From: an uncultured Prolixibacteraceae bacterium | GTDB lineage: Bacteria > Bacteroidota > Bacteroidia > Bacteroidales > Prolixibacteraceae | Direction of reading: 5' to 3' | Length of the DNA: 64,000 nucleotides | Assembly: GCA_903865775.1 (NCBI GenBank) | Contig: CAIPKZ010000419.1 | Span: 3,678-67,677, forward strand | Part shown: positions 1,895-62,790 of the stretch, in pieces | Numbering within the stretch: the first letter of the stretch is position 1 | How the letters are laid out: the number at the start of each line of letters is the position of its first letter | Translations under genes and position numbers: made by a program | The notes under the pieces: generated by a model | Told to the model about the DNA's origin: nothing | The model's input: the letters and a program-made list of their open reading frames with translations, nothing else | The model's database searches: none

Positions 1895-2821
1895 TTAAAT
1901 TTCAAAATCCATCGCTTCAAGATTGAAAGGGGTTTGCTGATATACATAGTAATTCAGCCAATTGGTAATCATCAGGTTGGCGTGACCTCTCCATCGCATG
2001 ACGGGTTCATTTTCCGGATTATCATTAGGATAATAATTTACCGGAATTTCAATTGGCAGTTTTTTCTTTACATCCCGTTTGTATTCAGTATCCAGCGTAA
2101 ATCTGGAATATTCAGAATGCCCGGTAATGAAAAACTGACGCCCTTCCTGTGCCATGACCATATTTACCCCTGATTCATCAGATTTGGAAATAATATTCAA
2201 TTCAGACACTTTCCGGATATCTTCTTCCAACACTTCAGTATGTCTTGAATGAGGAACAAAATACTCATCGTCAAAACCTCTGTAGATAGGCAAGGCGTTA
2301 TTTACATTCTTATGTTTGAAAACGCCAAACATTTTTTTATCCAGAGTGTACTTCGGAACGCCGTAAAAATGAAACATACCGGCTTGTGCTGCCCAACAGA
2401 TGAATAGGGTAGAAGTCACGTGTTTTTGCGACCAGTCAAAAATTGCGGTAAGTTCTTTCCAATAGGTAACTTCCTCAAATGGAAGCATCTCAACTGGTGC
2501 TCCTGTGATAATCATGCCATCGTAATTTCTGGATTTTAGCTGATTAAAGGTTTTATAAAAGGCCTTCATGTGAACTTCCGGAGTATTTTTTGACTCATGA
2601 CCAGACATCCTCAAAAACTCAATCTCCACCTGCAACGGACTGTTCGAAAGCAAACGGATCAAATCGGTTTCCGTAGTAATTTTGATCGGCATCAAATTGA
2701 CTATTACAATCTTTAACGGACGAATATCCTGGTGCGCCGCACGCGATTCGTCCATGATAAAGATATTTTCCTTTTGCAGCAATTCAATTGCAGGCAATTG
2801 ATCAGGGACATTTATTGGCAT
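1895..2821 (-). CDS. metA: Homoserine O-acyltransferase MetA, predicted acetyl-specific
   Basis: MPINVP start, LFICWAAQA catalytic Cys motif and GHSEY. ITGAPVE has Glu at the acyl-specificity position (Gly in succinyltransferases), which fits the neighbouring metY. Confidence 0.95.
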   Translation of the reverse strand: MPINVPDQLPAIELLQKENIFIMDESRAAHQDIRPLKIVIVNLMPIKITTETDLIRLLSNSPLQVEIEFLRMSGHESKNTPEVHMKAFYKTFNQLKSRNYDGMIITGAPVEMLPFEEVTYWKELTAIFDWSQKHVTSTLFICWAAQAGMFHFYGVPKYTLDKKMFGVFKHKNVNNALPIYRGFDDEYFVPHSRHTEVLEEDIRKVSELNIISKSDESGVNMVMAQEGRQFFITGHSEYSRFTLDTEYKRDVKKKLPIEIPVNYYPNDNPENEPVMRWRGHANLMITNWLNYYVYQQTPFNLEAMDFEI

Positions 2822-2842
2822 AATTCAGCAGTTTATTAGAAA

Positions 2843-2987
2843 TTCCGGTGAAGCTGTTTCAAAAGGTACTTTCCCCGTCATCCTGAACTTGTTTCAGGAT
2901 CGCAATACTCAGTTCGACAGACCCCGAAATAAATTCGGGGTGACGGGTTCTACGAGTGTTTTAACTATTAAGACAGCCTCACCGGAA
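2843..2987. repeat. REP/MITE-like nested inverted repeat element
   Basis: Outer IR ttccggtgaagctgt / acagcctcaccggaa (14/15). Two inner 8-bp hairpins, at 2880-2900 and 2921-2941, are inverted copies of each other. Confidence 0.8.
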
Positions 2988-3001
2988 TATGGATTGTAAA
3001 A

Positions 3002-4324
<1,323 letters not shown>

Positions 4325-5677
4325 TTAAAAGTTCTCGTTAAAAAAAATACGATGTATTTCGGTGATGGCTTTTCGGGTGTCCTTCCGATCGACGATCAGG
4401 TAACTGACCAGGTCGGAAGCTCCCGAGCCACTCAGTAAAACATTGATTCGGTGCTGAGCAACGGCGGTAAACAATTTTGCTGAAACTCCGTGATGCTGCT
4501 GCATTCCATGTCCAACCACCGCGATGAGCGAAACCTGATCTTCAATAGTGATTTCGCTCACAGAACTGAGTTGCAAGTGCTGGCATATTTGCCATGCCTG
4601 TTCAATTTCATTTTTATTCAGGATGATGTTTATACTCACCTGTGAGGTGATCACCGAACGGATATTGATTCCGGAATGATGAAAGGCTGTAGTCACATTG
4701 GCCAGAATTCCGGGTTTAAATCCAACTCCGGGACCATTTAATTTTAAAATGGCGATATCTTCAGTATGAACTACACTCTTAACTACATTGGGCGATACAA
4801 ATGATTCGGAATTGATGATTGTCGTTAGCTCCTTACCTCCATTGGCAAGACGAAAGACCTGAATTGGAATGTGTTTGCTCATTAATGGCTCAACAATTCG
4901 CGGGTGAATGGAAAGTTCGCTGAAATAAGAAAGTTCAGAAGCCTCGTCGTATGTCAAACGTGGAATCAGTTTGGATTCAGGAATAAAGTCCGAGTCTGAA
5001 GTTCTGAATTCCTTATCGAGTTCCCATAATTGAAGTGAATCCGATTCAATGAGTCGTGCAATTCCGGCAGCCGAATAATCAGCCGACCGTTTTCCGAGAC
5101 GCACAATCTTTCCTGCTGAAGTGATTCCATAAGAACCTGGAATGAGGCTAATTCCATCGGGAATTGAATTTTTCAGCTCCTTTGATTCACTATACAAAAT
5201 GGAAGCATTTCCGAATTCTTCGGTTGCTATTAGGCCAATATCTTCAGGAAAAATCAGGCTGGCAGCGATTTGCTTATAAATCAGGAATTGGTGAAGCACG
5301 CCTGCCGTAATCCGTTCAGAAAAACTAATCACCTGATCTTTTAAAGCAAGCGAAAAATCACCGGTGAACTCGATGCCTTTAAGCAAATTCTGAAGGTTTA
5401 TAAGTTCATTTTTGAGGCTTTCAGCGGGTTCGTACTGTTGAAAAACCTGCAATTTATGGCCAATAATATTGTTTATCTGATTAATAATCAGATCAGAAGT
5501 AGCAGCATTGTTAATCAGCAATTCGATGCCTTGCTCAATGGCTTGTTGTATTTCAGGAACGGCGGAAACCACCACAGTTATTTTATTTTCTGATTCAGAA
5601 AGAAGACTTGCAAAAGCTTCTAAAGCAGTAAATTTGGATAAACTGTTTCCGCCAAATCGTACGGTACAATTTGACAT
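4325..5677 (-). CDS. Aspartokinase-like protein with two ACT domains; catalytic motifs degenerate
   Basis: AK fold markers (xFGG, VVSA, SxxER, ELSYF, HP) and two ACT domains are present. TDVDG, LGRGGSD and DP motifs are substituted. Confidence 0.8.
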   Translation of the reverse strand: MSNCTVRFGGNSLSKFTALEAFASLLSESENKITVVVSAVPEIQQAIEQGIELLINNAATSDLIINQINNIIGHKLQVFQQYEPAESLKNELINLQNLLKGIEFTGDFSLALKDQVISFSERITAGVLHQFLIYKQIAASLIFPEDIGLIATEEFGNASILYSESKELKNSIPDGISLIPGSYGITSAGKIVRLGKRSADYSAAGIARLIESDSLQLWELDKEFRTSDSDFIPESKLIPRLTYDEASELSYFSELSIHPRIVEPLMSKHIPIQVFRLANGGKELTTIINSESFVSPNVVKSVVHTEDIAILKLNGPGVGFKPGILANVTTAFHHSGINIRSVITSQVSINIILNKNEIEQAWQICQHLQLSSVSEITIEDQVSLIAVVGHGMQQHHGVSAKLFTAVAQHRINVLLSGSGASDLVSYLIVDRKDTRKAITEIHRIFFNENF

Positions 5678-5701
5678 GATAAAAAATTAAAGTGATAATT
5701 G

Positions 5702-5760
5702 GAAAAAAAACCGAGCTTTAGCCTTCAAACAACATGATTAATCACACCGCCTAAAGGCTA
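5702..5760 (-). promoter_or_regulatory. Long hairpin followed by U8; candidate attenuator element
   Basis: Minus strand TAGCCTTTAGGCGGTGTGA-TTAA-TCATGTTGTTTGAAGGCTA forms 19 consecutive WC/GU pairs, followed by 8 nt and then T8. Confidence 0.6.
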
Positions 5761-5853
5761 GTGCATTATCATAGGCATGACGGACATCAAAGAATCATGG
5801 AATCCCATTGGCCGGGAAACACTGAAAGCGGAATATTTTGCTGAATGATTCAT
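5758..5853 (-). CDS. Putative Met-rich leader peptide MNHSAKYSAFSVSRPMGFHDSLMSVMPMIMH (31 aa)
   Basis: Hand translation. 6 Met codons, 4 of them in the last 9 codons. Lies between a promoter motif and the met operon. Confidence 0.7.
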   Translation of the reverse strand: MNHSAKYSAFSVSRPMGFHDSLMSVMPMIMH

Positions 5854-5879
5854 TGTTGATAATCTATTACAATTGAGTG

Positions 5880-5909
5880 CAAACATAAACAGTTTTTCAA
5901 AATAGACAA
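5880..5909 (-). promoter_or_regulatory. Bacteroidota housekeeping promoter for the met operon leader
   Basis: TATGTTTG (-7, TAnnTTTG) at 5887-5880 and TTG (-33) 19 nt upstream. Confidence 0.6.
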
Positions 5910-5952
5910 TGTTTTATCGGAAATGTTCAGGTAAAATCCGATTAAATATTTG

Positions 5953-6615
5953 TTAATTGCCAGTTTCGTTTCCGAAGATGGACTTGAAGTTGCTGAAAAT
6001 TAAATTAATAAGTATTTCTTTTTCTATTTTCAGAATTTGCGATGCTGACAAATAGATTTGCCGGATGGAAATTTCACTGTCATCAGTTTCCAAAAATAGC
6101 CGTTCGGTAGGAATCGTTCGAAAAACAGAGTGACTGGAAACATTTTTCAGGAGTCGTTCACCTACGGAAAAATAGAATCCATGTTTTACAAGGCTCCGTG
6201 TTGTTTCCAGATTTCCATGGTAACCATGAAGTATCCAGGGAACCTCTGACTTTGTTTTAATTTTTAGATTGATGACATCAGAATAAGCTCTTACACAATG
6301 GATAATCAGGCATTTGGATTGATTTTTAGCTATTCTTATTTGTTCTCTGAAGATCATTTCCTGGATTGCGAAGTCGGTTGAGATTGATCGATCAAGACCG
6401 CATTCGCCGATCGCGATCATGTTTTTCATTTCTGAAATGCGTTCAACTGCACTGATACAATCCTCAGGATTCACCTGTCCGATGTGCCATGGATGAAGTC
6501 CGGCAGAAAAAAGAAACTCCGGTTCAGCTTTTGGAATATCCTGAGCAAAAAAATTCAGGATTTGGATGTCATCATCCTCGGTTAATCGATGGGTATGTAA
6601 ATCAATATGTTTCAT
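5953..6615 (-). CDS. TatD-family hydrolase
   Basis: DLHTH, GLHPW, IGECGLD, IHCVRA and FLETD motifs. Confidence 0.9.
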   Translation of the reverse strand: MKHIDLHTHRLTEDDDIQILNFFAQDIPKAEPEFLFSAGLHPWHIGQVNPEDCISAVERISEMKNMIAIGECGLDRSISTDFAIQEMIFREQIRIAKNQSKCLIIHCVRAYSDVINLKIKTKSEVPWILHGYHGNLETTRSLVKHGFYFSVGERLLKNVSSHSVFRTIPTERLFLETDDSEISIRQIYLSASQILKIEKEILINLIFSNFKSIFGNETGN

Positions 6616-13600: not shown

Positions 13601-14008
13601 CTACGCGAACTGGACGATCTGAAACAATCGGTTCAGAATGCCACTTACGAGCAAAAAGACCCGCTGCTGATCTTCAAATTTGAATCGTTCAATTTGTTTA
13701 AAATCATGATCAGCAAGGTGAACCGGTCGATCATTTCAATACTTTCTAAAGGTCACATCCCGATCAGCGAACAACAGCAAGTAAGGGAAGCTCAGGAACG
13801 TCGCGGACTTGATATGAGCAAGTTATCTACTTCAAAACAGGAATTGCCTGGCAGCTCAATCAATCCTAACCGCATAGCAGAGGAACCACGCGAACAGCGG
13901 CCGGTACAACCAATTCGGGTTGAAAAAAAGGTAGGACGAAACGATCCTTGTCCATGCGGAAGTGGTAAAAAATTCAAATCGTGCCATGGCAAAGATTTGG
14001 TAGATTAA
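10682..14008 (+). CDS. secA: Preprotein translocase ATPase SecA
   Basis: [38 protein letters not shown] and C-terminal SEC-C motif [13 protein letters not shown]. Confidence 0.99.
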
Positions 14009-62411: not shown

Positions 62412-62504
62412 AGTTATCAACTGAATTTACTTCATGTTGATAATTTTGCGGCATTTTTCCTTGCCTGCCTGATCCTGAAATTGATTTTGCTGTATCTTAG
62501 CCGA

Positions 62505-62665
62505 CGAATTGGTGATGCCCGTTTGGGTATCAAAAGGGAATCCGGTTAAATTCCGGAGCTGTACCCGCAGCTGTAAACTCTGAATAATTTTTGCACTTCG
62601 TGCCACTGCCCCGAGGACTCGGGGTGGGAAGGCCGCAAAAATGGAGTGAGCCAGAAGACCGACCA
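62505..62665 (+). ncRNA. Cobalamin (B12) riboswitch
   Basis: GGT..., AAGGGAATCCGGTTAAATTCCGGAGCTGTACCCGCAGCTGTAA, GCCACTG...GGGAAGG and GAGCCAGAAGACC; downstream aagcttt...aaagctt hairpin. Confidence 0.95.
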
Positions 62666-62790
62666 TTCATGATACAATATTCAAAGCTTTCGGGAGAAAA
62701 AGCTTGGAGTAACCAACACCATTTTTTAATCGGTTATTTCAGCAGTTTTGCGTATTGTAATTGTTTTGAAACCATTCAAAATTATTACAT

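Follow-up and report, generated by a model that had tools for sequence, protein, structure and literature searches.

What informs a cell that its methionine genes are to be expressed, when the leader of these genes matches no known riboswitch? The question is raised by a locus of an uncultured Prolixibacteraceae bacterium (assembly GCA_903865775.1, contig CAIPKZ010000419.1). The window, which is the whole stretch of 64,000 nucleotides (nt) analysed, carries on its minus strand an operon formed by an aspartokinase-like (AK-like) gene, metY and metA. Its leader contains an upstream open reading frame (uORF) rich in Met codons and a long hairpin, designated hairpin C. It is likely, judging from the sequence of the leader and its relatives, that the uORF is translated and reports the supply of Met-tRNA to the operon. 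The best explanation for the whole is, on balance, probably a ribosome-mediated sensor of methionine supply that serves the AK-like/metY/metA operon, with hairpin C as the fold of the ON state.

Leader-peptide attenuation is the textbook mode of control for Trp, His, Phe, Leu, Thr and Ile/Val operons. Methionine is, to our knowledge, missing from this list, and the met genes are thought to be controlled by S-adenosylmethionine (SAM) riboswitches, T-boxes or MetJ/MetR-type proteins. With a conserved leader of Met codons before metY-metA, methionine would join the amino acids sensed by attenuation. The original prediction for this locus, made from the DNA letters, did not know such control to be characterised in Bacteroidota, and no description of a Met-codon leader-peptide attenuator was found in the open-access literature. 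Naville and Gautheret 2010 (PMC2965389) mention no Met leader attenuator. The features of the locus are the following:

5880 to 5910, minus strand: promoter of the Bacteroidota type, read from the sequence.
5758 to 5853, minus strand: leader open reading frame (ORF) of 31 codons plus TAG, MNHSAKYSAFSVSRPMGFHDSLMSVMPMIMH followed by the stop, with the ATG at 5853 and the TAG at 5760-5758.
5792 to 5851, minus strand: helix A enclosing hairpin B, from RNAalifold and pair counts in 45 leaders.
5764 to 5790, minus strand: single-stranded cluster of Met codons (codons 22-30), whose 3' end is the invariant block UAUGAUAAUGC.
5719 to 5760, minus strand: hairpin C, 19 base pairs (bp) and rich in G-U, with the stop codon as its first triplet.
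5678 to 5718, minus strand: unstructured, G-poor spacer with the initiation region of the AK-like gene, from alignment, composition and consensus folding.
1895 to 5677, minus strand: the controlled operon, from Pfam, NCBIfam and alignment to the solved aspartokinase 3c1m.
4325 to 5677, minus strand: AK-like protein with ACT domains, the first gene of the operon, starting at 5677.
3002 to 4306, minus strand: metY, O-acetylhomoserine sulfhydrylase (Pfam, NCBIfam).
1895 to 2821, minus strand: metA, acetyl-type homoserine O-acetyltransferase (Pfam, NCBIfam).

The original prediction had described the promoter, a 31-codon uORF with six Met codons, a 19-bp hairpin, a run of eight U (U8) and the AK-like start at 5677; all of them are present, with small corrections to the coordinates. 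It had also placed the leader before a met operon, and the three genes were assigned as such by Pfam and NCBIfam.

The leader is the property of a single group of bacteria. The AK-like protein, used as query against 40 relatives, identified 22 orthologous loci, all of one genus-level group, and the leader is present at every one of the 22. A covariance model made from the orthologous leaders detects one copy in the genome of the window and, among 301 genomes of the order, has matches only within this genus. The pattern of the invariant core, ATGATAATGCNNNAGCCTTNNNGCNGTGTG, was found in 44 species-level genomes among 185,579, with one copy each. Most of these are labelled Prolixibacteraceae and the others carry broader or, probably, mislabelled Bacteroidota names. 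The searches provided 45 distinct leaders altogether, each located directly 5' of the AK-like gene wherever the start of that gene could be placed. All genomes that bear the leader are metagenome-assembled and belong to one genus-level clade, and the analysis was conducted entirely in silico.

The comparison of the 45 leaders indicates that the reading frame is under constraint. The Met-rich uORF, whose conservation the original prediction had proposed as a check, is kept open in 45 of 45: frame 0 contains no stop codon, against 193 and 63 in frames +1 and +2, and over codons 5-19, where conservation is poor, the three frames have 0, 15 and 23. The start ATG is invariant. The uORF has 28, 30, 31 or 35 codons, and the underlying insertions and deletions (-9, -3, +3/-3 and +12 nt) are in frame without exception. 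The number of Met codons per leader is 5-9; the uORF of the window has six, at codons 1, 16, 23, 26, 28 and 30. The tail M-x-M-I-M-R/H is invariant, where x is an NNU codon (S, P, Y, F or V) or is lost along with two adjacent codons, and the Ile is always encoded by AUA. The last Met codon lies 3 nt from the foot of hairpin C in all leaders. The stop is a UAG at this foot in 38 of the 45. The remaining seven have CAG or GAG in its place, and their frame closes at a UGA within the 3' arm of the hairpin or at a UAA at its 3' foot.

The peptide itself appears to matter little. The entropy is flat over the three codon positions and the uORF shows no codon periodicity. The conserved peptide stretches MNHSAK and MGCNDSMM overlap arms of RNA helices, and in leader L022, where both arms of helices A and B are altered, the peptide is altered too, with the 31 codons and the tail MFSMPMIMR retained. 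The RNA helices account for the conservation of the peptide outside the Met cluster. A leader ORF would leave such a signature if the act of translation mattered and the product, save for the Met codons, did not.

The structure of the leader is formed by three helices, A, B and C, which are backed by covariation. Helix A pairs 5851-5845 with 5798-5792, such that pairing begins at the G of the uORF start codon and the 3' arm corresponds to codons 19-21; five of its seven pairs are changed on both sides across the 45 leaders. In L022, GAAUCAU/AUGAUUC has become GAACCG/CGGUUC. Hairpin B (about 5817-5803) is nested in helix A and all four of its pairs are changed on both sides. Hairpin C contains 19 contiguous pairs, eight of them G-U, and a loop of 4 nt. 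It folds with -21.3 kcal/mol (z = -5.3), which none of 200 shuffled sequences reaches, and given its many G-U pairs it exists only in the minus-strand RNA. The hairpin of the original prediction is thus real and conserved: it is 99% paired over the 45 leaders, six pairs vary on one side only and one covaries (C-G in 28, U-A in 12 and U-G in 5). Its 5' arm, AGCCUUyAGGCrGUGUG, is nearly invariant. For the three helices together 96.3% of the cells are paired, versus 36-45% with slid partners, and 11 pairs show two-sided changes, a number found in 0 of 500 shuffles.

The region between helix A and hairpin C, which contains the Met cluster, is single-stranded. Downstream of hairpin C no structure emerged from consensus folding. 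The spacer there measures 41-52 nt in the 45 leaders and has 4% G, 20% C and 44% U; upstream stretches of 60 nt with at most 5% G precede just 3% of the genes in this genome. The blocks UUUUUCC(C)AAAUU and UUUUAAA are conserved in the spacer of the window and of the 44 relatives. The G-poor spacer could be a landing pad for initiation without a Shine-Dalgarno sequence, or a rut-like site.

The position of the Met codons relative to hairpin C determines what a ribosome would do to it. The mRNA channel of the ribosome reaches about +11 to +13 nt from the first base of the P site. By this measure, a ribosome with Met30 in the A site would open the lowest 2-4 pairs of hairpin C and one held at Met16-28 would open none. 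A ribosome whose A site has reached the stop codon would open 5-9 pairs. In the seven species without UAG the ribosome would enter the 3' arm, and in the two whose frame ends at the UAA of the 3' foot it would traverse the whole hairpin. The productive stall sites cover 45 nt, and their common outcome is that the hairpin is not reached. A starved ribosome would thus spare hairpin C and an unhindered one would disrupt it, which in a biosynthetic operon would make the folded hairpin the ON state. It is more probable on these grounds that hairpin C folds while the ribosome is delayed than that it is a terminator blocked by stalling. The loss of UAG tolerated in 7 of 45 species fits the arrival of the ribosome at the hairpin as the signal.

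The opposite sign has to be weighed first among the alternatives. Hairpin C would then be a negative element, such as a non-canonical terminator, a pause site or an RNase III site, which a ribosome on the last Met codons blocks sterically, with read-through under methionine starvation. The sign would be correct for a biosynthetic operon, the last Met codon is 3 nt from the foot in 45/45 leaders, a duplex of 19-21 bp fits the sizes of RNase III substrates and the genome of the window has its U8 run (5710-5703) 8 nt past the foot. This run is, however, a trait of this genome that is not kept across the leader family. A run of at least five U within 3 nt of hairpin C occurs in 0 of 44 leaders; seven have no such run, in the others it lies about 9-40 nt from the foot, with a median distance of 24 nt, and a simple terminator scan did not call the hairpin. 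Hairpin C with its U-tract was accordingly rejected as an intrinsic terminator. Furthermore, with the helicase at about +11 from the P site, the stall at Met30 would open about 2-4 of the 19 pairs and those at Met16-28 none, so a ribosome at the stop codon, or reading on in the seven stop-less species, would disturb the hairpin more than the starved one. Analogous leaders of another family, described below, form their post-stop hairpin upon stalling. With this evidence the negative element is unlikely.

This negative reading is that of the original prediction, which had combined Met attenuation of metY-metA with a hairpin-plus-U8 terminator. The conserved Met-rich uORF supports the first part, and the terminator did not survive the comparison of the relatives; the caveat of the prediction, that the terminator logic was not classical, was justified. 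The missing terminator is not a quirk of the organism, since the Trp and His leaders found elsewhere in this genome have canonical ones, with an A-tract, a perfect stem and a U6-7 run directly after it. The Trp leader ORF, MNVMRNIWWWHRNFTQYRGRK (with IWWWH), is found on contig C33 at 13847-13913 of the plus strand, before a trpE-like gene. The His leader ORF, MNNTFKHLGHHHVNLSAGRQ (with GHHHV), is found on contig C282 at 2414-2477 of the plus strand, before hisG. The Rfam family of Bacteroidota trp leaders, Bacteroid-trp (RF01692), has no match in this genus and misses the Trp leader of this genome. As a separate observation, the minus strand of contig C29 contains at 5753-5879 (reverse-complement coordinates) an ORF beginning MRKFRWWWWWWS, with six consecutive Trp codons, 278 nt 5' of an ORF of 235 residues that by eye, no family search having been made for it, is unlike an enzyme of the trp pathway. 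The short ORF could have arisen by chance or could be a leader with some other purpose.

A switch between antiterminator and terminator helices was searched through four candidate pairings, and none exceeds shuffled or competing partners across the family. The 5' arm of helix A with the 5' arm of hairpin C has a mean of -8.0 kcal/mol versus -5.4 for shuffled sequences and p<0.1 in 34% of the leaders. It is strong in L009, L015 and L020 (-13 to -14.5 kcal/mol), and only 10 of 44 leaders have the helix A arm as the best upstream partner of the hairpin arm. Between the Met cluster and the hairpin C 5' arm the energy is -7.5 kcal/mol versus -8.1 shuffled, with no gain, and the 3' arm of hairpin C with the start region of the AK-like gene (-12 to +30) gives -7.2 versus -7.1. 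The fourth, between the Met block and the same start, is considered below. Two other pairings were dropped. The long-range pairing GUUUGCA/UG-UCAAAU called by RNAalifold has the -7 promoter box as its 5' partner, which is probably untranscribed. The pairing of ACCCA/AUCCA after the hairpin with the 3' arm of hairpin B is seen by eye in about 60% of the leaders and lacks covariation in the clade where hairpin B is changed. The 3' arm of hairpin C forms no structure with the rest of the spacer, as checked by consensus folding only.

With hairpin C as the ON-state fold, the sensor would operate as follows. Transcription would begin a few bases past the TATGTTTG box, and a ribosome would load at the A-rich 5' end and read the 31-codon leader ORF, the decisive portion of which would be the Met codons 16-30. 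When Met-tRNA(Met) is scarce, the ribosome would be held in the Met run, short of the stop. Hairpin C would then fold once made and the transcript would be productive. When methionine is ample, the ribosome would get to the stop codon or, in seven species, into the 3' arm. Its mRNA channel would keep at least the lower half of hairpin C from closing as the RNA polymerase proceeds. The 3' arm of hairpin C and the G-poor spacer would in this OFF state amount to about 65 nt of naked RNA, on which a factor such as Rho or a ribonuclease would act. An external factor is proposed because an RNA terminator is absent. Helix A would bury the start of the uORF once transcribed, and leader translation would thereby be limited to the pioneering ribosome. 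The kinetic output step, in which the hairpin formed on stalling is productive and the naked RNA is otherwise attacked, is offered tentatively, as possible rather than probable.

Several points weigh against the methionine-supply sensor with hairpin C as its ON state. Translation, stalling at the Met codons and regulation are inferred from alignments and foldings, as are the sign of hairpin C and the factor of the OFF state. For the OFF mechanism a terminator, a pairing of the hairpin C 3' arm with the AK-like start and a change in accessibility were all sought and none was found; with the stalled ribosome modelled as an unpaired stretch, the accessibility of the AK-like start shows no consistent change. 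Hairpin C forms at equilibrium in every modelled state, so that the model hinges on co-transcriptional timing. Limitation of methionine also lowers the charging of the initiator tRNA, which is the usual textbook objection to Met attenuators. The element is restricted to one genus-level clade of uncultured bacteria, which limits its phylogenetic depth. Finally, UAUGAUAAUGC with its synonymous AUA and the two hairpin arms are more constant than codon sensing plus pairing would need, which hints at an extra partner. None of the readings accounts for all of this extreme conservation.

It is this conservation that gives the next alternative its weight. The nascent M-x-M-I-M-R tail may be an arrest module sensing methionine or SAM in the exit tunnel (compare TnaC and CGS1 MTO1), or the leader may be a protein- or ligand-binding RNA with TRAP-like AUGAU repeats, the ORF being secondary. 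The last six residues and the surrounding nucleotides are invariant, synonymous and non-ORF bases included, AUGAU occurs three times in the leader and the hairpin arms are conserved beyond the needs of pairing. An element acting only as RNA would not preserve an open frame of 31 codons with exclusively in-frame insertions and deletions. As for an arrest peptide, the tails of the sister families differ widely (MMMGMMCSMMMSC, MMCCMMCCC, GMMMGRMSMA), which points to codon hunger rather than to a specific arrest peptide. There is no Rfam match, and helices A and B meet in variable junctions, which is not how an aptamer core behaves. Both forms of this explanation are quite unlikely.

Translational attenuation of the ermC type is improbable as well. 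Here UAUGAUAA would pair with UUAUCAUG at the AK-like start, hairpin C would serve as a clamp and a parked ribosome would free the start. The pairing, of 8 bp, belongs to the minimum-energy fold of this genome, reaches -6 kcal/mol or lower in about half of the leaders and would account for the invariant AUA and the fixed U preceding AUGAUAAUG. Initiation in Bacteroidota takes place without Shine-Dalgarno pairing and is sensitive to structure. On the other side, the start region varies (UACCAUG, UCUCAUG, GAACAUG, AAGAUG, UUCUAUG, GAUAUG), and the pairing, the fourth candidate mentioned above, is not conserved, with p<0.05 versus shuffles in just 18% of the leaders. The modelled accessibility of the start on stalling does not rise (mean 0.56 versus 0.53-0.56). 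A small Met-rich protein with its own function, or a chance ORF in a structured 5' untranslated region without any sensing, is very improbable: small proteins are common and under-annotated and the N-terminus MNHSAK is conserved, yet codon periodicity is absent, what is conserved in the N-terminus and middle follows the arms of helices A and B and is gone when these covary (L022), and the site directly before met genes, together with the Met-rich uORFs recurring before metY elsewhere, favours sensing.

The promoter has its -7 box, TATGTTTG, at 5887-5880 and a -33-like (T)TTG at 5909-5907, with a spacer of 19 nt. The same -7 box is present in nearly all 45 leaders, L018 having TAGGTTTG instead, and the uORF ATG is located 26 nt (24-26) 3' of it, after an A-rich stretch of about 20 nt between promoter and uORF. 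L021 and L050 contain an extra in-frame ATG 9 nt 5' of the conserved one. The first protein of the operon has diverged from the aspartokinase of M. jannaschii (3c1m) in its motifs: KFGG is replaced by RFGG, SAMSEVT by SAVPEIQ, SFGER by SFSER and GRGGSD by GKRSAD. Both of its ACT regions align to 3c1m, and its score of 207.6 is just under the NCBIfam asp_kinases cut-off of 208.7. The protein may be a regulatory pseudoenzyme. Its gene is limited to the genus of the leader, with a 35%-identical homologue in one other family.

The riboswitches known to control met genes were searched in the leader with the Rfam covariance models. The region 5600-6000 has no match at the gathering score nor at E<=10 (noise only), and specifically none to SAM-I/IV, SAM-II/V, SAM-III, SAM-VI, SAM-SAH or T-box models, in line with the original prediction, which had recognised no SAM-I/II core. 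The same search does detect SAM-I at sister loci and in relatives. The 500-contig draft genome of the window has no SAM-I. In four complete relatives (L076-L079; genomes G015, G012, G020 and G023) the sole SAM-I precedes the gene of a methanogenesis-marker-16-like metalloprotein. This family (COG1900) is linked to homocysteine synthesis, so that SAM sensing and the Met-codon leader would coexist on different genes. Elsewhere in the window, a full-length cobalamin riboswitch (RF00174, 96.7 bits) is found at 62493-62681 of the plus strand. Short ORFs as rich in Met as this uORF are rare: the 4.9-Mb genome has just four with at least 4 Met per 10 codons upstream of long ORFs, a background of comparably Met-rich uORFs of about 1 per 1000 genes. 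The other three, on contigs C82, C140 and C301, were discarded as fragments without a tie to methionine.

Other families of the order have leaders of a different design before metY. They provided 28 metY loci, of which 20 were scanned with Rfam, and seven of the 20 have a SAM-I riboswitch on the metY strand. Several loci have Met/Cys-rich uORFs 90-140 nt upstream. Such uORFs occur before metY in at least three other families, and at loci L083, L097/L126 of family f11 and L110-L121 of family f30 they are found within 90-260 nt upstream. Their tails are FIMPMLPMSMPWPEFR in L083, FMMMGMMCSMMMSC in L091 and AMMCCMMCCCNYSW in L097. In L083 (genome G151) a SAM-I riboswitch at 1155-1255 of the plus strand is directly followed by a Met-rich uORF at 1265-1376, with metY at 1485. 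Sensors of SAM and of Met-tRNA may be joined in tandem at this locus. The recurrence of Met/Cys-rich uORFs before metY fits a Met-sensing leader.

The family f30, to which L091 belongs, provides analogues of the leader. Met/Cys-rich uORFs are found in 12 of 18 loci examined, from at least nine genera, with tails such as GMMGKMCMMTK, HMMMCMMMTR, TMRMSMRR, GMMMGRMSMA, HRMHMGM and MMCCMMMTS. A long hairpin with a covarying outer helix begins 6-8 nt past the stop, its 5' arm resembling GCGCAUCGUAUCUGA and its 3' arm UCAGAUNCCGAUGCGC. This 5' arm, with GCAUCGU/GCAUCAU, can pair with the Met codons as well. The 1:2 pairing has -14.5 to -19.2 kcal/mol and the 2:3 pairing -17.6 to -27.5 kcal/mol, and both beat shuffles in 9 of 9 leaders. 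A 3:4 helix was searched in the f30 analogues and nothing consistent was found. A ribosome on the Met codons must favour the post-stop hairpin in f30, which supports this hairpin as the fold of the starvation state. L091 matches no Rfam family, and the f30-type leaders look like a separate, so far undescribed family of candidate Met attenuators. The boldest generalization is that the leader is a terminator-less Met attenuator of inverse logic, where the ribosome at the stop represses and Rho or a ribonuclease acts, and one member of a broad class of Met/Cys-codon leaders before metY across the Bacteroidales, replacing or supplementing SAM riboswitches. In this full form it is doubtful.

The leader can now be compared with known systems. 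It resembles the classical attenuators (E. coli trpL, hisL, pheL, thrL, leuL and ilvL, and Bacteroid-trp RF01692) in having a short ORF in the 5' leader, rich in codons for the end product and otherwise free in its peptide, with helices placed by the stop codon. It differs from them in the amino acid, which is Met, and in its main hairpin, whose 5' arm starts with the stop codon. It would work like a leader-peptide attenuator but lacks two classical features, the intrinsic terminator and a demonstrable switch between alternative antiterminator and terminator helices. SAM-I (RF00162) occupies the same position before the same gene, metY (in 7 of 20 sister-family loci), and responds to the same pathway end; the present leader matches it neither in sequence nor in structure, and its signal would be tRNA charging and not SAM. 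Together with its counterparts of other design, which occur in several families of the Bacteroidales and partly adjoin a SAM-I riboswitch in tandem, the leader suggests that Met-tRNA charging and SAM are read separately.

In TnaC/tna and pyrBI, as is proposed here, the position of the ribosome at or near the leader stop decides the outcome directly, without an antiterminator helix. The output of tna is Rho-dependent, and TnaC senses free Trp via the nascent chain and induces a catabolic operon. The pyrBI leader senses uridine triphosphate through polymerase pausing. In the present leader the signal would be charged tRNA(Met), and a role of Rho is a guess. Relative to the arrest peptides TnaC, SpeFL and CGS1 MTO1, here the last six residues alone are conserved, and the Met/Cys tails of the sister families are unrelated. 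Mycobacterial polycysteine attenuators are reported to be leaderless uORFs, rich in Cys codons, that control downstream operonic genes and respond to the cognate amino acid (bioRxiv 10.1101/834739). They share with the present leader the richness in codons for a sulfur amino acid and differ in phylum, in the use of Cys and in being leaderless, whereas here about 20 nt precede the uORF and a structured body follows.

The metY uORFs of other families are alike in that their Met codons cluster within the final 3-10 codons, that they are located some 90-140 nt upstream of metY and that a long conserved hairpin begins at or just past the stop. They are unlike in sequence, with no homology, and in f30 the hairpin has a 5' arm that pairs with the Met codons. 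In the genus of the window, the role of this pairing seems to fall to the ribosome at the stop codon. A terminator-less leader that stands beside canonical Trp and His leaders is a defined system for the coupling of ribosome position and gene expression in the Shine-Dalgarno-free Bacteroidota.

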